From: a virus | DNA length: 64,000 nucleotides | IMG/VR virus record: IMGVR_UViG_3300025009_000068 | Span: 1-64,000 of that record | Reading direction: 5' to 3' (one strand) | In this document: piece after piece, positions 1,224 through 47,319 of the stretch | Numbering within the stretch: position 1 is the first letter of the stretch | Layout of the letters: every line of letters begins with the position of its first letter | Translations under genes and position numbers: made by a program | Notes under the pieces: model-generated | Database searches by the model: none | Told to the model about the DNA's origin: nothing | Seen by the model: only the letters and a program-made list of their open reading frames with translations

Positions 1224-2741
1224 ATGAGCAAAACAAATACTACACCATCACCATCACCATCTTTTAAGCCCAAACCTTCACCACCACACCTCGCCACCCC
1301 TTCCCCGGCAATATACTACCGCTCATCCGCCTACCCCTTCGGAGATTTGGTGCCAAGAGCAATCCAGGTAAAATGCAACGTATCATCTTCCACGCCGGGC
1401 AGCACGGCACACGTCACCGAAGGATGCGAATATGACGCCTGGGTGGACGGTGACGGGAATGTGTCGGCCGATCTTATGAGTGGCGCAAGGCTTCCGCTTG
1501 ATCCGGAGCAGTACAAGGTCATTAAGTGGTGGGTGGTTGATGATAGGAGGTCAATAAATGAGGATGGCGCCCGAGTTGACCACGCTTGGCTTCACAAGGA
1601 AGGCTGGCACCCCACTTCGGAAAACATCAACGCCCTGCCCCCTCCTCTTCGAAGGTATATCCACGATCTTGAAACGAACTGTGATCCCGCTGGAATCATT
1701 GCGGAGAATACTGCGAAATCAGATCAGATCATGCAGCTCAGCGTTGCGCTTGGTAAAGAAAAAGACGAGGTTGTAGGGCTCACAAAGGAAAGCAATAGCC
1801 TCATAATCAGAAACGCTATTGTGGAAGAGGAATACAATCTGTTGTGCAGGGAAAAGTCGGAGGTCAAAGACAAACTGACCGAGCGAGAAGTGGAGCTCGA
1901 TGAGTGCAAGGAAGAGTTGGCCAGGAAGGATAAAGAGATTGCATGGCAGGAGGGTGAGATTGCATGGAAAACAAGGAAGCTCTCCAAAAAGAATAAGGTG
2001 GTTTCGATTCTGAGCCGAAAGCTACTACTCGTTCTCGAGGAGAAGCTGGCCGAGAAGGGGATGAGGCCGACACATGAGTATTATCCATCCTTCTCTATCC
2101 CATCCACCCCCTCCATCCCCTCTACGTCCCAGGAAGCGCAGGTGATGAGGCTCAGCGAAAGCCTTGCCAGAATGCACATGAATCACGAAGATCTTGGAAG
2201 GAATTACCGTGAGGTTGAGAAAGAGCGGAATGCGTTAAAGAAAGAACGGGATGCCTTGAAAGAAAAGATCCTCTCTTCCGAAAACGATAAAATCGTTTTC
2301 ATTCTCACGACTGGTAGTGGATCAGATGGCGACGAGTGGGATGTAATTAGTCTTCACGCTACTAGAAAAAGTGCTGAGTTAGCCAAAAACAAATATGAAG
2401 CGCCCCGTCCACGAAATGACGGAAGCACTTATTCCTTCGATGCTCAAATAGAGGAATGGAAAGTAGAAGATTATTCACTCATTGCTTCTAAACCTTCCAA
2501 GCTCAGGATGGACTTTCACGATCTCCTCGGAGCCATAATAGAAAACCTTGCCGACGGCTACTCCATTGAGATCAATGCCGAGAAGGGGGAATGCTCGATC
2601 AACCTCCTCGACTTCGAGGGCAACGATGTGGAGTTCTGCCGAGATGACTTATCGGATGCCGGGGTTGTCGTGGAGGCTATCAGGGAGTCAAATAGGAGGA
2701 GTGAAAAGAACAAGAAAAACGAAGATGGTGAAGGGCATTAA
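1224..2741 (+). CDS. Mosaic phage hypothetical protein with central coiled coil
   Basis: 505 aa, RBS AAAGGAGAG; several small-phage-protein-like segments plus heptad repeats. Confidence 0.7.
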   Translation: MSKTNTTPSPSPSFKPKPSPPHLATPSPAIYYRSSAYPFGDLVPRAIQVKCNVSSSTPGSTAHVTEGCEYDAWVDGDGNVSADLMSGARLPLDPEQYKVIKWWVVDDRRSINEDGARVDHAWLHKEGWHPTSENINALPPPLRRYIHDLETNCDPAGIIAENTAKSDQIMQLSVALGKEKDEVVGLTKESNSLIIRNAIVEEEYNLLCREKSEVKDKLTEREVELDECKEELARKDKEIAWQEGEIAWKTRKLSKKNKVVSILSRKLLLVLEEKLAEKGMRPTHEYYPSFSIPSTPSIPSTSQEAQVMRLSESLARMHMNHEDLGRNYREVEKERNALKKERDALKEKILSSENDKIVFILTTGSGSDGDEWDVISLHATRKSAELAKNKYEAPRPRNDGSTYSFDAQIEEWKVEDYSLIASKPSKLRMDFHDLLGAIIENLADGYSIEINAEKGECSINLLDFEGNDVEFCRDDLSDAGVVVEAIRESNRRSEKNKKNEDGEGH

Positions 2742-2757
2742 TGTGATGCCTGAGTGA

Positions 2758-2793
2758 GTCGCTCCCCACTCAGGGGGGGGCGTGGATTGAAAC
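2758..2793 (+). CRISPR. Solitary type I-C-like CRISPR repeat (no array)
   Basis: GTCGCTCCCCACTCAGGGGGGGGCGTGGATTGAAAC: GTCGC start, GC hairpin, GTGGATTGAAAC end; intergenic. Confidence 0.75.
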
Positions 2794-2862
2794 AAGATAG
2801 ACGATGAGCGTGACATTACTGACATCTCTCAACCAATCACCGCAAAGAAGGAGCAAAACAAA

Positions 2863-3303
2863 ATGTCGCAGAACAGACAACCCAATCAACCAACCCCAAT
2901 GAGCTTCGATAACCTGGCCGGCGGCGCCCTGGCTGAACGCTTCGAGCATGTACTCGAGCAGGTCCTGAAGAACATGCAGGACCCCAACACCAAGGCCACG
3001 ACGGTTCGCAAGATCACCCTCACCGTTTCCCTCAAATCCGACGAAGAGCGCGAGCTCGTGGACATCACTCATGACGTGTCCGCCAAGTTGGCCCCGCTGA
3101 AATCGTACCCCACCAAGGGCTACCTGGGTATCAAGAATGGATGTCCCGTGATGTACGAATCGGCTGACCCGAAGCAAATGCACATGCGGGATCAGTTGCG
3201 GGAGGAAGAGGCGCGACTGGAGGAAGCGAGAGAAGCTGAGAAGAAGGGCCGTGAAGAGGGGAAGGTTGTGTCAATGCCTGGAAGGGAGGTGGCTGCTGAG
3301 TAG
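2863..3303 (+). CDS. Conserved phage protein (family often labelled 'replication terminator protein')
   Basis: LAGGALAERF...NMQDPNT...RKITL...KLAP motif; AAGGAG RBS. Confidence 0.75.
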   Translation: MSQNRQPNQPTPMSFDNLAGGALAERFEHVLEQVLKNMQDPNTKATTVRKITLTVSLKSDEERELVDITHDVSAKLAPLKSYPTKGYLGIKNGCPVMYESADPKQMHMRDQLREEEARLEEAREAEKKGREEGKVVSMPGREVAAE

Positions 3304-4677: not shown

Positions 4678-5034
4678 GTGGCCAGTAAAAAGCCTGGGAA
4701 ATATGCCAATGTTAAGGGGTATGACCCAGGGCCATTTTGGCCAGAAGCAAAGCCGCTGTCCGAGTTGGATGAAACCGACCGATGTTTCCTAAGGGCAGCC
4801 AACGGAGGCGTGGACGTGTGGTGCCCTCTCGACGCGGATGCTATCGACAGCATTCTGTCGGGCCGCAAGAGATCACATTGTGCTCGGGATGGTCATCTCA
4901 AATTGGGAAGCATGGTCAGGTTTTTCGACCCGGAAGCGAAGAAGCATGTGGATGTTCGAGTGACCGATGTCGGGCTTCCATTCAAAAATCTGAGATGCGG
5001 GCCAATCGTAAAGGTGGAATTTGAGCCCGTCTAA
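4678..5034 (+). CDS. Hypothetical protein, possible ASCH/PUA-like C-terminal domain; cassette-like
   Basis: GGGAGG RBS + GTG; IDSILSGRKRS...VRVTDV; stop codon lies inside the attC R'' box. Confidence 0.55.
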   Translation: MASKKPGKYANVKGYDPGPFWPEAKPLSELDETDRCFLRAANGGVDVWCPLDADAIDSILSGRKRSHCARDGHLKLGSMVRFFDPEAKKHVDVRVTDVGLPFKNLRCGPIVKVEFEPV

Positions 5035-5202: not shown

Positions 5203-5814
5203 ATGTTTTTTCAAAAGGCCAGAAGAATCAAGGAACTGGAAAAAGCACTTGCAAGGTCGGATGAAACCACGAACAAGATCATCGAGGAAGCCGAAACAGA
5301 CATGCAAGTCCGCCAGAACAAGGCCATCAACGCCTTGAAGGAAAGGTATGCGGAAGACCTCATGGGGAAGATCGAGAAGGTCAAGGCCGCGCTAAAGGAA
5401 GAGCACGACACTAAAATCTCGGCCTTGAAGGAAAAACACTCCGCCGCAATATCCTCACTTCAAGGCAAACTCCGCGATCAGTCCGAGGCCGATGCGCTTC
5501 TCTCCGCGGTTCACTTGGTTGCCGAGGTCGCGAGAAGTAGAGGTATGGAGTCGAGGACGGACAAGGAGAAAATTGCCGACCTCGAGAAGAAACTGGAAGA
5601 GAATGCGAAGAACTGGAGAATTCAGGCGGAGGCGATACGGTCGGGCCTTGGAGGCTTGGCCACGCAGCAACAGCAGCATCTTCAATTCGGATATCCTTTT
5701 GGCCTGCTGGGCGAAAGTCTTGGCTCTCCGTTTGGAGATGCGATCAAAGTCGCTGACATTTTGCCACTTGAACCCGGACAAGTTCGGCCACGCATTCGGT
5801 GGAGAGAGCCCTGA
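5203..5814 (+). CDS. Coiled-coil hypothetical protein
   Basis: GAGGAG RBS; K/E/A-rich heptads. Confidence 0.7.
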   Translation: MFFQKARRIKELEKALARSDETTNKIIEEAETDMQVRQNKAINALKERYAEDLMGKIEKVKAALKEEHDTKISALKEKHSAAISSLQGKLRDQSEADALLSAVHLVAEVARSRGMESRTDKEKIADLEKKLEENAKNWRIQAEAIRSGLGGLATQQQQHLQFGYPFGLLGESLGSPFGDAIKVADILPLEPGQVRPRIRWREP

Positions 5815-6100
5815 ATACGAGCACGAGATAGAGCGATGCGACGAAACGCTTGGTCGGGTGCTCAGCGGCATCGACCGTGAGAGAACGCACGTCATGGTCA
5901 TCTCGGACCATGGTTTCGACGGGGCCGAGTTTCGCCATCTCAACGCTCCGTGGTCCTGGTGTGCTACGGACATTCCGTTGCGTCAACGGTGGGCCGATGG
6001 AGGGGCCTGCACCGTTGACGTGTATCTGACCGTGCTTGAGTGGTTTGATGTGCCAGCACGAAAAGAACTGCCCCAACTTCGAGGGAGGTCACTTCTGTAA
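5738..6100 (+). pseudogene. C-terminal fragment of an alkaline phosphatase/nucleotide pyrophosphatase superfamily gene
   Basis: PDKFGHAFG and VISDHG metal-ligand motifs and GRSLL end; N-terminal half absent; overlaps the 5203 gene in another frame. Confidence 0.65.
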
Positions 6101-32131: not shown

Positions 32132-32223
32132 TGAATGTTGTCCTTTGCTTTGAAGGGAGGGGCAGTAGTGGTTGTGGTGATGGTGTTGATGGTGAAATTA
32201 AAAATGATGGATCATGGTTTTCG

Positions 32224-32901
32224 TTACCACCGCATCATCTTGGCCTGCCTGGATCGCTTGACATGGCCCACATCGACGGTATGTCTCGCCATGGCTACCC
32301 CGTCTTGAAAGATCGTTTCGTAGTACACGGCAAGCTTGATGTCGCTCCAGTCTGCCTTTGGGATTTTCATGAGGCGTGAGATGGCTCCTGCTGCGATGGT
32401 TTCTAGCCAGTCATTGTAAACGACGTCTCCAACCGCCGTGGCAACAGCCGACGGCTTGAGTGCGGCCTCAACCTCGATAATGTCTGCCGTCGCTTCGTCG
32501 GGAGGAACATAAAGCCTGATGGTTCCTTGAGTCTCGACAAGGTATTGCGTGGGTGTCCCGCTCTCCGCTGATTCCCAGTTCGGAAGGAGATGATCGAGGA
32601 CCTCTCTAGCCGCGGCATCTATGTCGTTCCCGTCATACCTTACCTTCGTTGGAACCACGACCTCCGTTCCGGCATCCACGAGAAGCGTGTACGTCGGCTG
32701 ATCCACGACCGAGGTGAGGGGGCCGAGCCAGTCACGCCATATCGTTGACATGCGGCAAAACTCACGACATGCGTTCCTTATGGCATTTAGAGCTATAACC
32801 ACCGGACACCCAGGGACGTGCGGCAAGACTTCCGGAAGGAAGAGATCGAAGGATACCGACCCTATCGGAGTTACTGATGTTCCCGACCCTGTTCCGCCCA
32901 T
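32224..32901 (-). CDS. Head-tail adaptor-like protein
   Basis: FLPEVLPHVPGCP...ACREFC...IAAGAISRLMKIP motif. Confidence 0.7.
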   Translation of the reverse strand: MGGTGSGTSVTPIGSVSFDLFLPEVLPHVPGCPVVIALNAIRNACREFCRMSTIWRDWLGPLTSVVDQPTYTLLVDAGTEVVVPTKVRYDGNDIDAAAREVLDHLLPNWESAESGTPTQYLVETQGTIRLYVPPDEATADIIEVEAALKPSAVATAVGDVVYNDWLETIAAGAISRLMKIPKADWSDIKLAVYYETIFQDGVAMARHTVDVGHVKRSRQAKMMRW

Positions 32902-32944
32902 TTATATACTATCCTCCATCTGCACTGGTTCACATCCTCCCATT

Positions 32945-33541
32945 CTAAGAAACAACCTCGGTATCGGGATTCGGAGCGAAGTTGTACCCGCTCTTCTGCC
33001 GCCACACATAGACCGTTCCCGCGTCCAGGTTGAATGTAATTGTCCCGGTTTGGTCGGTTCTTCCGGATGCGACTACGTTGTTCCCGGCCTCGTCCGTTGA
33101 AATCCATACATCCACGTCTGCGATGGGAGCCCCGGAAACAGAGTTCGTGATGGTGTACGGCCAGGAGATAGCGCCGGACCCGGAGAGGTTTCCTCCGGTC
33201 GCCGCAAGGTTGAGCTTGGCGGCAACTGTCCCGGCTGTCGCACTCACACTCACGGCTGTCGTCAGTAGAGTTTGAGCCGCGAGAGCTACGTCCCCGGTGC
33301 CGATTGGCTTGTATGCTTCATCTGCCGCATCCGTGCCGGCGTAGCAATAGCCGACGTATTCCTTGGAGAGGTCGTATCCGGCATAGGTGTAGACGTACCA
33401 CCCCGATCCCTTCTCGGTCATTGCCGCCGCATTCACGACCACGGAGCCGTCGGAGATATCTCGCAGGGTGATTGTTGGAGACAGTCCCTCTAGGGGGACA
33501 CCGGAACTTGTAAAGTATGCTCGGAAATCGTTGTATGCCAT
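32945..33541 (-). CDS. Virion structural protein with Ig/transthyretin-like segments
   Basis: PIADVDVWI...GRTDQTG...LDAGTVYVWRQKSGYNF. Confidence 0.6.
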   Translation of the reverse strand: MAYNDFRAYFTSSGVPLEGLSPTITLRDISDGSVVVNAAAMTEKGSGWYVYTYAGYDLSKEYVGYCYAGTDAADEAYKPIGTGDVALAAQTLLTTAVSVSATAGTVAAKLNLAATGGNLSGSGAISWPYTITNSVSGAPIADVDVWISTDEAGNNVVASGRTDQTGTITFNLDAGTVYVWRQKSGYNFAPNPDTEVVS

Positions 33542-42095: not shown

Positions 42096-43805
42096 CTACA
42101 CCCCCTGCACGAACCGAGCTTCTCCCGACTGCAAGCGCATGTCCGGGAGTTGCCCTTTAACCCTTCCTTCGAGGACGGCGATGTCCATGTCTCTTTTGAT
42201 GGCCGCCCAGGTTGGATCTCTCAGCAATGCTGGATTCTTGGTCATCTTGGTGCTGTGGTCATTAATTTCCTGAATTGTGTACTCCCATTTCACGGGAGGG
42301 GCCTGCGGGGGGTTCCCGGCCATTGGCGACGGTTCAACCATGTACTCCAGGGGGTTATGGGGCTGACCCTGCTGATAATTTTGGCCTTGCTGCTGCCCGT
42401 GATTCCCTTGCTGGAACTGCTGTCCCTGCTGGACCTGCTGGTTGACCTGGGGCCCTATGTAGATGGGCTGCCCAAATTCATCGAACTGCATGAATGTCTG
42501 CTGTTGAGACTGAGGATTCCCTTGCTGACCCTGCTGCACGATCTGCTGCTGCTGACCACTGTTTCCTTGTTGACCTTGCTGGACCTGCTGCTGGTTCTGC
42601 TGGCCCTGCTGCTGACCCTGCCCTTGCTGCCATGATCCATCGGGCGGCTGTTGATTGTTGTGGGGCTGCTGGCTTCCAGGATTCTGCACATTTCCTTGCT
42701 GCTGCCCATTCTGCCGCTGCCCCTGGTTTGATAAAAAGTCCGACCTGAAGGCGTTGTAGCACTCCGCGACGGCCACGGCGTCACCAGCCCCCCATGCCTC
42801 TTCGGCATCCTGCCGGTATGTTCTGACCGACATGGGTTTCCGTTGATCCAGCCAGTTGTGAAAATCGGGCATGTTGTCGATCTGCTGCCATTCGGGACAA
42901 ATCCTTCCAAGCTCGGCATGAAAAGCTCGCTGGGCATTGCCGGCACGCTCGGCGTTGACCTGCTCCACATTGGTCACAACCTTTCGCATTCCCTCGGTTG
43001 TCGCCGCGAGTTGCTGTTGCAGGTTCGCTATGACACCTTCCTGGGACTGCATGTGCTGAACCATCTGCGGCATGATCCTGATCATGGGGGCGAGATCATC
43101 CGGGTAAGTGGCCGCGAGAGTTTCGAAGTCCACTCCGGATAGGTCTATCGGGAATCCCCCGTTTGCACCGGATGCGCCTTGCTGTGTTGCCTGCCCTGCC
43201 TTGCCTTGCTGGCCTTGCTGGTTGAATTGTCCCTGCTGGCCCTGACTTCCTTGCCCTGTCTGGCTGGCCTGCACTGCTCCGCCTTGCCCTGCCTGCATCG
43301 CCTGTTCAAGCTGCACCATACGCTGCTCGAGTGTAGAAGCCTTGGCCTCGAAGGTGGAAGCCCTCTGCTCGGTCTCGCGGAGCTGGTGTTGCAGCCGCGG
43401 GACCTCTGCGTTGTACTTTCCCTGGAGGACCTGGAACTTCTGCTCTGCCGTGCGGTACATGCTTTCCCATTTCCGGTCTTCAGTCGTGATCTGCTGCTGT
43501 GTCTGCTGCTGCGGAGCAAGCTGACCCGGTTGAGGCTGATCCTGCTGAGCCTGGAAGGGAAGGGACTGTTGCTGTTGGGGCTGCTGTGCGGGCTGGCCTG
43601 GCTGCTGCTGCCCTTGCTGACCGGGTTGCGCTGGTTGTGGCGCCGTGGCACCGCCGCCTTCTCCGCCTTGAGCGCCCATGGGAGCCGTGTTCGCCTGGCC
43701 CGGGGGCGATCCCTCGCCGGGCGTCTGCTGCGGTATTCCCAAAGCGTGTTCAATGGCATCGATTTGCTGCTGTGCCTGTTTCACTACGTCGTTCAAGCCG
43801 GACAT
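42096..43805 (-). CDS. Scaffolding protein, extremely Q-rich
   Basis: KFQVLQGKYNAEVPRL and PEWQQID..PDFHNWL motifs, AVLEGRV near C-terminus; AAAAGGAG RBS at ATG 43805. Confidence 0.8.
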   Translation of the reverse strand: MSGLNDVVKQAQQQIDAIEHALGIPQQTPGEGSPPGQANTAPMGAQGGEGGGATAPQPAQPGQQGQQQPGQPAQQPQQQQSLPFQAQQDQPQPGQLAPQQQTQQQITTEDRKWESMYRTAEQKFQVLQGKYNAEVPRLQHQLRETEQRASTFEAKASTLEQRMVQLEQAMQAGQGGAVQASQTGQGSQGQQGQFNQQGQQGKAGQATQQGASGANGGFPIDLSGVDFETLAATYPDDLAPMIRIMPQMVQHMQSQEGVIANLQQQLAATTEGMRKVVTNVEQVNAERAGNAQRAFHAELGRICPEWQQIDNMPDFHNWLDQRKPMSVRTYRQDAEEAWGAGDAVAVAECYNAFRSDFLSNQGQRQNGQQQGNVQNPGSQQPHNNQQPPDGSWQQGQGQQQGQQNQQQVQQGQQGNSGQQQQIVQQGQQGNPQSQQQTFMQFDEFGQPIYIGPQVNQQVQQGQQFQQGNHGQQQGQNYQQGQPHNPLEYMVEPSPMAGNPPQAPPVKWEYTIQEINDHSTKMTKNPALLRDPTWAAIKRDMDIAVLEGRVKGQLPDMRLQSGEARFVQGV

Positions 43806-43819
43806 ACTTTCTCCTTTTG

Positions 43820-44140
43820 AGAGCCTTGAAGGGTGGGGCGGGGAGCAAGGCCGCGCGCTAAGGGTGTTCACCGTGGCGTGGATGATCCACAACCAACATG
43901 GCGAGCCCGGAACCGCGAGCCTGTCCCACTCCCTCCCTTCGAGGTATTCTCTGGTTGTGCCTGGCGGAGCCGAGAAGGGATGGATCTAAGCCACTTCCTC
44001 CACGGTGTTCCGCTCAAGGCAATGCGTTGAGGTGTGTGGTGGTTGATGTGAATGATGGTGCTGATTGTAATGTGATGGTTGATGATTATTTGGAGCCTAG
44101 ACAGCGCCGATAGTCGCCACCGACGTGTTGCCACGGCTCC
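43820..44140 (-). promoter_or_regulatory. Structured 5' leader of the scaffold gene with four AYA/C internal-loop hairpins
   Basis: Base pairing read directly; see finding. Confidence 0.65.
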
Positions 44141-44162
44141 CGTGGATGGAAGTGAAGATATG

Positions 44163-44238
44163 AAAAAAAGTAGATCGCGCGGCCAGGCCCATGCGGGAGT
44201 ATGGGCTCTTCGGGGATCTCTCCCTAGACCGCGCGATC
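44163..44238 (-). terminator. Terminator-like branched hairpin followed by U7
   Basis: GATCGCGCGG/CCGCGCGATC stem, then TTTTTTT on the - strand. Confidence 0.55.
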
Positions 44239-44280
44239 ATTGTATTATCAGTACGCAATCAGCGCAAGGCCAACCTTTGC

Positions 44281-45939
44281 TTAATTATCCCCTAAATTTA
44301 TCCAAGTAACCGTGATGGTCCCATTGGCGGTCAAAGAGTCTGCCGCACCGGTCGTGATGTCGGCATCATCCACTTCCACGTTTAGATACAGATCGATGGC
44401 CGTTGTGTGACCGTCGTGATAAACCTGCTCGGTGACGGTGCTTTGGAAATCAGCGGCAGCAACACTTGCTACCGCCTGAGTGGTTGCCACCGTGGGGACC
44501 CAGTCGTCTTCCGTGGTCGGATTATGCAGGGTAGGGGTAGCCTCTGCTGCCGTAGTGCCGAGCGAGATATCGCCGTCAAAAGCAGCGTCTATCGTTCCTG
44601 ACGCCTCGGTCAGAGTGAGGTCGGCCACGACACCCATGGCGAGCAATCTGCCCTCGGGGAAGTCGTAGATTTTCAGCCCGCCGTAAGCAGCGGCCCCGCC
44701 CGGATCGGTGATTGCAATGGTTGCATTGGTCAACGTGAAGACGGTTTGGCATATCGCCCCAACACATCTTTCCGCAGCCACGACACCGGCACCGGCTCCA
44801 GCTTCTACGCCGGGTGTACCAGCTATAATCACATCATCAAGAGCTGAACCGATGGTGATGGTGTCCTTTACCGAATTGTCCGTTCCGATGTTGTAAGTGG
44901 CTCCCAAGGTTCCGTTTACAGCAAAGATGCCCCCTGCGCTCTCCATGGATACCGTAAGATCGTCGGCAACCGCGAAGTCCATATCATCGGCTGTATCGAG
45001 GGTAATGTCCTCGCCTTCGATATCCACATCATCCAGGGCCGAACCTATGTCTATATCGTCAGCAACCGAATTGTCCGTTCCTATGCTATAAACTGCCCCA
45101 AGGGTCCCGTCGAACGAAGCGATACCGCCTGCGGTCTCCATTCGGACAGTGTAATCATCGGCTACGTTGAATTCCAGGTCGTCCGCTGAGTCCAAGATCA
45201 GGTCATTACCGTAGATGGTGGTGGCATCCTTTGCCGAGCCTATATTAATGGTGTCCGCCGTGGTGTCGTCGGTGCCGATATTGATGGTAAAACCGGACGT
45301 ACCGGTAACAGCAAAAATGCCTCCGGCTGATTCCATGGTAAAGGTCCAGTCATCGGCTACCGTTGCATTGCCATCATCGGCTGTATCGAGGGTAATGTCC
45401 TCTCCTTCAATGTCAACGTCATCCTTTGCAGACCCGATATCGATGTTGTCGGCCGTGGTGTCATCCTCTGCAATGGAGTAAACCAGCCCGGCCGTGCCAT
45501 CAATGTCGATCAACCCAGATGCCGTAGTGCTGGTGATCTGAATGTTGTCCACGGAGCTTACGATGATGTCGCCGCCATTGGTTAGCGTCTCCACCTTTAC
45601 GGAATCGGCCCCTGACCCTTCGCTTGAAATGAGAATGGAAGCGTTTTGGTTTCCGTTGAGATCGAAAATCATGTCCTCGCCGGCAGCACTGGCTGTCACC
45701 GTAAAGATCATGTCACCTGTAGTGTCCACGTCGAGACTGTCCATGGATACAATTTTCCCGCCGCGGGTAATCTCGAGCTTGTTTACGGTGAGGACTTCGT
45801 AGCGAGCCGCCTCCGCGATTGTGATCCCGAGAAAACAAATAATCCCCAGGAAGAGAGTGAGGACCTTGCCGAGGGTTTCCTTTTTGCTGCTTTTGGTGAT
45901 GGTGGTGCTTTGGGTAATTCTTTTGTCAATTCTTTCCAT
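44281..45939 (-). CDS. Accessory virion fibre/decoration-like protein with internal acidic repeats and signal peptide
   Basis: Repeats of IGTD..D.I.IGSA.DDV; C-terminal YDFPEG...DLYLN...GTITVTWINLGD; VLTLFLGIICFLGITIAEA. Confidence 0.7.
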   Translation of the reverse strand: MERIDKRITQSTTITKSSKKETLGKVLTLFLGIICFLGITIAEAARYEVLTVNKLEITRGGKIVSMDSLDVDTTGDMIFTVTASAAGEDMIFDLNGNQNASILISSEGSGADSVKVETLTNGGDIIVSSVDNIQITSTTASGLIDIDGTAGLVYSIAEDDTTADNIDIGSAKDDVDIEGEDITLDTADDGNATVADDWTFTMESAGGIFAVTGTSGFTINIGTDDTTADTINIGSAKDATTIYGNDLILDSADDLEFNVADDYTVRMETAGGIASFDGTLGAVYSIGTDNSVADDIDIGSALDDVDIEGEDITLDTADDMDFAVADDLTVSMESAGGIFAVNGTLGATYNIGTDNSVKDTITIGSALDDVIIAGTPGVEAGAGAGVVAAERCVGAICQTVFTLTNATIAITDPGGAAAYGGLKIYDFPEGRLLAMGVVADLTLTEASGTIDAAFDGDISLGTTAAEATPTLHNPTTEDDWVPTVATTQAVASVAAADFQSTVTEQVYHDGHTTAIDLYLNVEVDDADITTGAADSLTANGTITVTWINLGDN

Positions 45940-45999
45940 TTCGTGGTTCTCCTTTTCTTTTTTTCGTTGTTATGGCTGTAGCATGGTGCATGGTGCATA

Positions 46000-46299
46000 T
46001 TATTTTCGTTGGGGTTTAACCCAAACCCCATGGGTGGTATTCCACGCCTTGCCATGGGCGTTATAGCTCATGATCCGAAACATCAAGAGCCCCTTATCGG
46101 GAGCGCCACGCCAAACGTACTCGGTCTTGGCGCTCCCCGTGTCCCGAATCTCTCCCCATGACCGGCCCCTAGTCGTTGAGATCTGGAGCTTGTAGCCGGT
46201 CGCTCCGGCTGAGGCGTCCCACTCCAACGGGATGTCTGCCGCGAAGGAATAGGACGCAAGAATGATGGTGATAGCTATCGTAAGCAGTATTCTCCCCAT
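46000..46299 (-). CDS. Secreted fibronectin type III-like protein
   Basis: Signal ending SFA; LEWDASAGATGYKL...FRIMSYN. Confidence 0.7.
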   Translation of the reverse strand: MGRILLTIAITIILASYSFAADIPLEWDASAGATGYKLQISTTRGRSWGEIRDTGSAKTEYVWRGAPDKGLLMFRIMSYNAHGKAWNTTHGVWVKPQRK

Positions 46300-46350
46300 C
46301 AATCCTTCTCCGCTCCAACAAAATATCAACGCACCCACCCAACCGTCTCC

Positions 46351-47319
46351 TTAGCTGGCCCCGCCGTCCTCCCATTGGTTTCTATAATTGAGTCCATCTG
46401 CTACCGTGGAGGATCGGTTGTGAAGGCACATATAACTCCCTGCCGTCGCTGGTGAATCTATGCAGTCCCCGGCCCCAATACCCGCCGAGTATGACCCGCC
46501 CACATCACCGTTGAATTGCATCGCGTCAGACACCATATCAACGGTCAACACGGCAGCAGCATCAGTCCGGTAACACGCAAAATAGTTCGCAGTTGCAGGA
46601 TGCCGAATCGTGCCGGCAACGGAAGCATGGAAAACCGAACCGGACTGAGCAGGTCCAGGCCCGAACTGATAGACGTCGTTGATGTCCCAGTTGTTGTCGG
46701 TCCCACCTGCAAGAGTGCAGGTTGCTCCGGTGGCTGTCGAGGCTGTAACCGTGCAGCTTGATGTATCTGTGACGTTGTAGAGCATCATACCAACTTTTGC
46801 AGAGGTGGCGCTTGAATCGTCGGCATGGATCAGCGTCGCACTGTCATCGGTTGTGGTGTGAACGCCGGATGGTGCGGTCAGAATAATGGTATCCATGAGG
46901 CGCGGAGCCTTGGTCTCCACCGCAGTCTCAAGATCCTGAAACGCTTCCGGGAGCTTGGGGTCATCTCTGACTGTTGACCCCGTGAATGTCCCGTAAGTGT
47001 TACCAGGAACTAAAGCCACGGATGTGCTTGAAGCTGCCGCAGCCTCAGCATTTGTGGCGGTCTCGATCTTCCCTGCCACTGTCGAGGATGCGGCAGGGAC
47101 ACCAGCGACCACATCTATAGACCCAACCCCGCCAGTCTCACTCAACGCTCCATTGGAAACCTGAATTTCATAAACAGGCTTCTTGCTGGGACTTCCATCA
47201 GGCTCGGAAACAAGAATGCGGCCTCGCGCGGCATGGGAGCAAGGAAGATGAAATGATACGACAAAAAAGCATGCGATAAAAAATGTAAACAGCAAATATT
47301 TATATGATTTCATGCCCAT
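46351..47319 (-). CDS. Accessory fibre-like protein with signal peptide
   Basis: KYLLFTFFIACFFVVSFHLPCSHA; ASSTVAGKIETATNAE fibre motif. Confidence 0.7.
   Translation of the reverse strand: MGMKSYKYLLFTFFIACFFVVSFHLPCSHAARGRILVSEPDGSPSKKPVYEIQVSNGALSETGGVGSIDVVAGVPAASSTVAGKIETATNAEAAAASSTSVALVPGNTYGTFTGSTVRDDPKLPEAFQDLETAVETKAPRLMDTIILTAPSGVHTTTDDSATLIHADDSSATSAKVGMMLYNVTDTSSCTVTASTATGATCTLAGGTDNNWDINDVYQFGPGPAQSGSVFHASVAGTIRHPATANYFACYRTDAAAVLTVDMVSDAMQFNGDVGGSYSAGIGAGDCIDSPATAGSYMCLHNRSSTVADGLNYRNQWEDGGAS

Follow-up and report, generated by a model that had tools for sequence, protein, structure and literature searches.

A 36-nt element in the genome of an uncultured groundwater phage is, judged by its sequence, a genuine type I-C CRISPR repeat that the phage carries as a single copy. 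We tentatively read it as a solitary repeat unit (SRU) acting as an RNA anti-CRISPR in the manner of RacrIC1, the best explanation we can offer, held with a confidence somewhat below an even call. The phage is represented by the IMG/VR record IMGVR_UViG_3300025009_000068 (89,432 bp), which CheckV rates as complete and whose first 64 kb form the stretch of DNA analysed here, referred to as the window. The record encodes a terminase, portal/adaptor, internal virion and tail-fibre proteins, and a family search showed a tyrosine integrase to be absent. Public sequencing runs with matches to this stretch of phage DNA are groundwater and soil metagenomes. Since the terminase is only about 42% identical to those of cultured phages, the host of the phage cannot be read from its relatives.

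The repeat and its surroundings

The preliminary description had pointed out a 36-nt intergenic repeat on the transcribed strand of an early operon, and the repeat is indeed present as described (Table 1). It lies inside a 121-nt gap on the same strand as both flanking genes, starting 16 nt past the stop codon of the upstream ORF (2739-2741) and ending 69 nt before the ATG at 2863. The minimum free energy structure of the repeat hairpin is identical to its centroid structure (-15.8 kcal/mol), and the geometry matches that of I-C repeats, which have a stem of 7-8 bp, a 5' overhang of 2 nt and a 3' overhang of 11 nt (cf. PMC8524198).

Table 1. Positions of the repeat, its parts and the neighbouring genes in the window
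Feature	Positions	Strand	Basis or remark
First gene of the rightward operon, 134 aa	765-1169	+	weak HTH/transcriptional-regulator-like PHROG matches, E ~1e-3
Upstream ORF, 505 aa, no family match	1224-2741	+	stop 16 nt before the repeat
Heptamer CCTGAGT, exact reverse complement of the loop ACTCAGG	2749-2755	+	sequence
Solitary type I-C CRISPR repeat unit, 36 nt	2758-2793	+	exact sequence; covariance model; sole significant match in the whole phage
GT overhang of the repeat	2758-2759	+	sequence
5' stem arm CGCTCCCC	2760-2767	+	sequence
Repeat hairpin, 8-bp stem (2760-2767 with 2775-2782)	2760-2782	+	RNA fold
Loop ACTCAGG, enlarged to 7 nt	2768-2774	+	sequence
G run, 8 G	2773-2780	+	sequence
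3' stem arm GGGGGGCG, one G.U pair	2775-2782	+	sequence
3' tail TGGATTGAAAC, 11 nt; would-be crRNA 5' handle	2783-2793	+	identical in all aligned host repeats
Leader of the downstream gene ('guide-like' stretch)	2794-2862	+	RBS AAGGAG at 2848-2853; sequence
Downstream ORF, 146 aa, phrog_997 'replication terminator'	2863-3303	+	PHROGs annotation

Gene order makes an early operon plausible; no sigma-70-like promoter was predicted within 250 nt of the repeat. Searches of the flanking proteins against Pfam, PHROGs, the PDB (by sequence) and the ESM Atlas gave nothing useful, and no recognisable acr or aca gene was found beside the repeat. Acrs may nevertheless be among the neighbouring proteins without a family match. 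The 134-aa product encoded two genes upstream of the repeat may regulate the operon, whether as an aca-like protein or in another way. Further downstream, an ORF at 5492-6100 (+) encodes a type I phosphodiesterase/nucleotide pyrophosphatase domain (PF01663, E 1.3e-12); it overlaps an alternative ORF at 5203-5814, leaving the gene call in this region in doubt.

The heptamer that precedes the repeat allows for an alternative, weaker hairpin with the loop, while RNA folding still favours the repeat hairpin. This complementarity could reflect an alternative pairing or be the trace of a template-switch mutation.

Type I-C identity and solitary state

Bacterial repeats were searched with a pattern consisting of the first 10 and the last 19 bases of the phage repeat, with the loop left free. 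The pattern matched in at least 120 bacterial genome stretches, mostly in arrays with up to 119 copies per 8 kb, and from the retrieved array stretches we extracted 1,975 host repeats comprising 61 variants. The first 10 nt, the stem base and the 11-nt tail of the phage repeat are identical to the host repeats, both conserved termini are present (5' GTCGC... and 3' ...GTGGATTGAAAC, the latter within the 11-nt tail), and the stem variant GGGGGGCG with its G.U pair is common among host repeats. All five genomes with such arrays that were checked encode cas5d, in at least three cases on the array's own contig at a distance of a few kb. Because arrays with this repeat are accompanied by cas5d, we assign the repeat subfamily to type I-C.

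Scored with a covariance model of 41 host repeat variants, the phage repeat obtained 49 bits (E ~2e-11), with a runner-up of 11.5 bits in the window; canonical copies in other viruses reached 55-57 bits by the same model. The Rfam family CRISPR-DR9 gave a sub-threshold score of 22.4 bits (E 0.018) on the phage repeat, and Rfam at the gathering threshold returned no match. The I-C identity assumed at the outset is thus borne out, both by the termini shared with cas5d-linked arrays and by the covariance score.

A chance look-alike, or an assembly artefact in which a host array was fused to phage sequence, would be a trivial explanation for such an element. Sequencing through the G run is difficult, and one contig of this phage from a metagenome stops within it. 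Against this stand the E value of ~2e-11, the presence of only one repeat without any spacer-repeat series, and the fact that the two junctions of the repeat recur in an independent relative of 85 kb as well as in contigs of other runs. The independent assemblies effectively refute chance and artefact alike, and we consider their probability negligible.

The repeat occurs once in the window and once in the entire 89,432-bp record. With model filters switched off no second or degenerate repeat was detected in the window (best other match 11.5 bits), nothing above about 13 bits was found elsewhere in the whole phage, and mismatch scans for half-repeats found nothing in the phage. The model gave one significant match per genome both in the phage and in its relative UViG_3300002097_000027. 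Since the same model picks up degenerate partner repeats, at 21-31 bits, in other IMG/VR viruses with this subfamily, the absence of a partner in the phage is meaningful. Family searches over the 89-kb record gave no match for Cas5d, Cas7 or Cas8c (Csd1). The lack of a second copy and of cas genes, reported earlier for the window, therefore extends to the whole phage, in the case of cas genes as far as these three families are concerned. From its sequence the element counts as an SRU under the operational definition, being intergenic on a viral contig with neither a full or partial repeat nearby nor cas genes. One further candidate, an Rfam DR10 match at 2826-2859 (32 nt past the repeat, E 0.65), was judged to be due to chance because it overlaps the RBS, is without a hairpin and is invisible to the I-C model.

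The repeat points to a host whose type I-C system belongs to the GTCGCTCCCC subfamily. In this sense the repeat is a host clue, as had been proposed, but a weak one, since repeats with the same ends are spread over many phyla, among them Chloroflexota, Acidobacteriota, Lentisphaerota, Bacillota, Bacteroidota, Desulfobacterota, Planctomycetota and Spirochaetota. In addition, the 1,796 spacers taken from 120 array pieces gave no credible match to the phage, the best reaching 22/24, which is at chance level.

Loop enlargement and conservation

All 1,975 host repeats are 32-35 nt long with loops of 3-6 nt, none of them having 36 nt. The longer loop stated in the preliminary description is therefore confirmed: the phage repeat has a loop of 7 nt (36 nt in total), and that of the relative UViG_3300002097_000027 measures 9 nt (38 nt in total), the G run comprising 8 G in the former and 10 G in the latter. 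All differences between the phage repeat and the host repeats are confined to the loop and the G run. The variation in the length of the G run may be partly technical. Of the host variants retrieved, one in a Bacteroidales MAG (L128) comes closest: it is 34 nt long, has the loop ACTTA and differs from the phage repeat by one loop base and two G. Among other IMG/VR viruses no loop-enlarged repeat of this subfamily was found besides that of the relative, and a metagenome scan with the 5' half and the loop yielded nothing beyond a piece of this phage (L143) and a degenerate array that is unrelated and has another tail. The latter is located on the 107-kb metagenome contig ULYE01019536.1 (L142:8200-8700); its copies vary and end in GAGAATTGAAA(T/A), not in GTGGATTGAAAC.

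The sole close relative in IMG/VR, UViG_3300002097_000027 (G001, 85 kb), carries the repeat at the same place, and the repeat is thus present in two phage lineages. The two genomes form a mosaic in which about 60% aligns at about 90% identity, with several perfectly identical blocks. These blocks are 1.2-4.3 kb long, include 1610-2891, 32139-33364 and 42746-47022, and suggest, as far as can be read from the sequences, a recent recombination between the lineages. The repeat itself lies inside the near-identical block 1610-2891 (~1.3 kb), in which the two phages differ by one mismatch and a GG indel. Since conservation is regional, covering the whole of this block, it is uninformative on selection acting on the repeat.

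A profile search revealed no intermediate relatives in IMG/VR. The repeat is carried by metagenome contigs from several groundwater and soil studies, the 10-G form being found in contigs of the runs X5 and X12. In run X15 a relative of about 91% identity is present, of which one contig matches only from 2776 on and another departs after 2701; the region 2701-2776 may therefore differ in this relative. Homologues of the downstream protein (P0002-P0007) are 57-89% identical, and for each of the two flanking genes more distant homologues were detected by protein searches in assemblies of ENA, Logan and JGI, one contig of 140,584 nt being listed for both P0009 and P0005.

These observations bear on the view that the repeat is a neutral relic, gained by recombination with a host array or by stray integration and persisting without function in a short intergenic gap. 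Consistent with a relic, the only relative with retrievable DNA is identical over ~1.3 kb around the repeat with no sign of repeat-specific selection, the loop and the G run have drifted beyond the host range, and neither acr neighbours nor a nearby promoter were found. On the other hand, all positions needed for recognition by Cas5d are intact, the orientation is sense, and the published SRU class is enriched near acr genes, its tested members being functional (PMC10651486). We consider a relic unlikely, while giving it serious weight.

Possible functions of the repeat RNA

Under the RNA anti-CRISPR explanation, the phage lineage would have captured an I-C repeat from a bacterial array and kept it as a solitary unit in its rightward operon. 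The repeat would be co-transcribed with the flanking genes and fold into its hairpin, exposing the stem base and the UGGAUUGAAAC tail. In a host with a type I-C system, Cas5d (Cas5c), the I-C endonuclease, would bind the hairpin and probably cut it, the predicted cleavage site being located between 2782 and 2783. From the resulting 11-nt handle Cas7 would assemble on a phage RNA lacking a proper repeat at its 3' side, and Cas5d and Cas7 would be tied up in useless complexes, lowering type I-C interference in the mode of a Racr.

The accounts of Cas5c/Cas5d processing given in PMC5965381 and PMC8524198 describe an enzyme that recognises the stem at its base together with the 3' overhang, in which the UGG directly after the cut matters most, and a cleavage that yields an 11-nt 5' tag. 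According to the same accounts changes in the loop are tolerated, in contrast to changes in the stem base or the UGG tail. In the phage repeat these determinants, the stem base and the 11-nt UGGAUUGAAAC tail, are intact. What argues against a decoy is the loop of 7-9 nt, beyond the range of the 1,975 host repeats, together with the lack of a predicted promoter within 250 nt, the lack of a recognisable acr or aca neighbour and a conservation that is regional. As to its class, the earlier proposal of a candidate RNA anti-CRISPR stands: a genuine, solitary, sense-oriented I-C repeat on a phage without cas genes fits the published SRUs and Racr candidates. Inhibition of immunity by the phage repeat would be an extension of this likeness.

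A guide-like RNA released from the stretch downstream of the repeat had been suggested as well. Here the handle together with the next 32-35 nt (from 2794) would be loaded into the host Cascade as a crRNA-like RNA, which might act on the host, silencing a cas or toxin promoter as a Cracr does, or be directed against competing phages in the way of a mini-array. In its favour, unique sequence comes after the intact 5' handle required by Cas5 and Cas7, crRNA-like regulators of viruses, some of them of type I-C, have been described (10.1101/2024.10.29.618823), and mini-arrays are present in other IMG/VR viruses with this repeat subfamily. However, the phage has no second repeat, not even a degenerate one. 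The downstream stretch, searched against other phages and I-C loci as had been proposed, gave no protospacer in any of the sequence sets covered, namely IMG/VR, the GenBank phage collection, 120 pieces of I-C loci and the phage's own genome; the I-C locus pieces also lack a TTC-flanked seed match. Moreover, the repeat-less junction reads TGA instead of a TTC PAM, the repeat flanks are not duplicated (p ~0.2), and the same stretch must also serve as leader and RBS region of the next gene. With no second repeat and no target in the collections searched, the suggestion found no support, and a one-repeat guide appears quite improbable to us. A homing-type cassette was also considered and found no support either, given the junction without a TTC PAM and the non-duplicated flanks (p ~0.2).

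The phage might also use the RNA in cis for its own purposes, either as a stabilising or processing hairpin between cistrons or as a switch of the downstream gene that depends on Cas5d and Cas7. The location of the repeat inside an operon and ahead of the downstream RBS would suit such a role. Cas7 polymerising from the handle could presumably reach the RBS at 2848-2853, and the upstream heptamer complementary to the loop provides an alternative fold. Yet no U tract follows the hairpin, which therefore is not an intrinsic terminator; a plain hairpin would not need exact identity with a CRISPR repeat, and folds of the wider region are no better than those of shuffled sequences (z -0.7 to -1.2). 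We give a cis-acting element little credence.

A far-reaching version of these ideas, which we regard as very unlikely, holds that the repeat is a built-in sensor or switch and not, or not only, a decoy, or else a one-repeat guide whose target belongs to an as yet unsequenced host or rival phage. As a sensor, in a host with an active I-C system, the RNA could be cut by Cas5d at 2782/2783 and Cas7 could coat the leader of the phrog_997 gene. Expression of the phage gene could thereby depend on the CRISPR state of the host, and the slippery run of 8-10 G in the loop could tune the response.

Returning to the RNA decoy, an active repeat would add an environmental example from groundwater to the RNA anti-CRISPRs. 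It would also imply that the gene ahead of an I-C decoy in an operon need not be a known Acr but can encode a large protein without family assignment, and that the loop can be enlarged while the parts recognised by Cas5d are left untouched, amounting to a natural mutagenesis experiment on what Cas5d needs. The neighbouring genes would then be candidates for anti-defence functions. As both the class and its mechanism have already been published, no new question is opened by the phage repeat, the enlarged and length-variable loop being its only modest peculiarity.

Comparison with known systems

SRUs have been described on viruses and plasmids (Faure et al. 2019, as cited in PMC10651486), and the SRUFinder catalogue comprises 2,103 viral SRUs (PMC10651486). 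Among the entries listed in the IMG/VR3 table of that paper many are of type I-C; the contig of our phage was not found in the portion of the catalogue examined. In IMG/VR we found 15 contigs with canonical copies of this exact repeat subfamily, five of which look solitary.

Several of the loci encountered have arrangements of their own. In IMGVR_UViG_3300050335_000039 (L207:4826-4922) a lone canonical I-C repeat at 4858-4890 is located between identical 32-nt sequences (tggcagaaaggggg...aaaaaaaa). Such an arrangement suggests either the insertion of a repeat with target duplication or a downstream copy guiding against the upstream one. A group of related IMG/VR contigs (L195, L197, L200-L203, L205, L206 and L208) carries a canonical I-C repeat with a degenerate partner about 35 nt upstream, and in several of them degenerate repeats are also found about 600 nt away on the opposite strand; these contigs seem to carry arrays of the same repeat subfamily, either mini-arrays or Cracr-like ones. 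A chromosomal hybrid mini-array is present in PHAZ01000042.1 (HGW-Deltaproteobacteria-22, L074:2230-2380). Its two spacers measure 32 nt and 34 nt: the first separates a degenerate I-C-like repeat end from a full I-C repeat with an 8-G run, and the second separates this full repeat from a type I-E-like repeat (GTGTTCCCC...GATGAACCG) that follows it.

Canonical I-C array repeats share the 5' 10 nt, the stem base and the 11-nt handle with the phage unit, but occur in multiple copies of 32-35 nt, whereas the phage unit is a single copy of 36 nt (38 nt in the relative). Cracr and mini-arrays (10.1101/2024.10.29.618823) resemble the proposed decoy in that host Cas proteins are borrowed by a virus-borne, repeat-derived RNA. 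They differ in having a spacer between two, often degenerate, repeats and an identifiable target, while the phage has one repeat and no target was found.

The closest counterpart is RacrIC1, an I-C RNA anti-CRISPR from a Bifidobacterium pseudocatenulatum prophage (Camara-Wilpert et al. 2023, PMC10651486). It is located 11 nt past acrIC5 and is transcribed together with this gene; by itself it restores plaquing on an I-C strain by several logs (PMC10651486). RacrIC1 and the phage repeat have in common that a single I-C repeat is carried by a virus in sense orientation with no cas genes on the element. The distance from the preceding stop codon is similar to that of the phage repeat (11 nt versus 16 nt), and RacrIC1 is co-transcribed without a promoter of its own, as would be expected of the phage repeat. 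RacrIC1 follows an acrIC5 homologue, whereas the phage repeat follows a 505-aa protein of no known family. The host and I-C system of RacrIC1 are known and its activity has been measured, whereas the phage repeat is a candidate predicted from its sequence and, unlike RacrIC1, has an enlarged loop with a variable G run.
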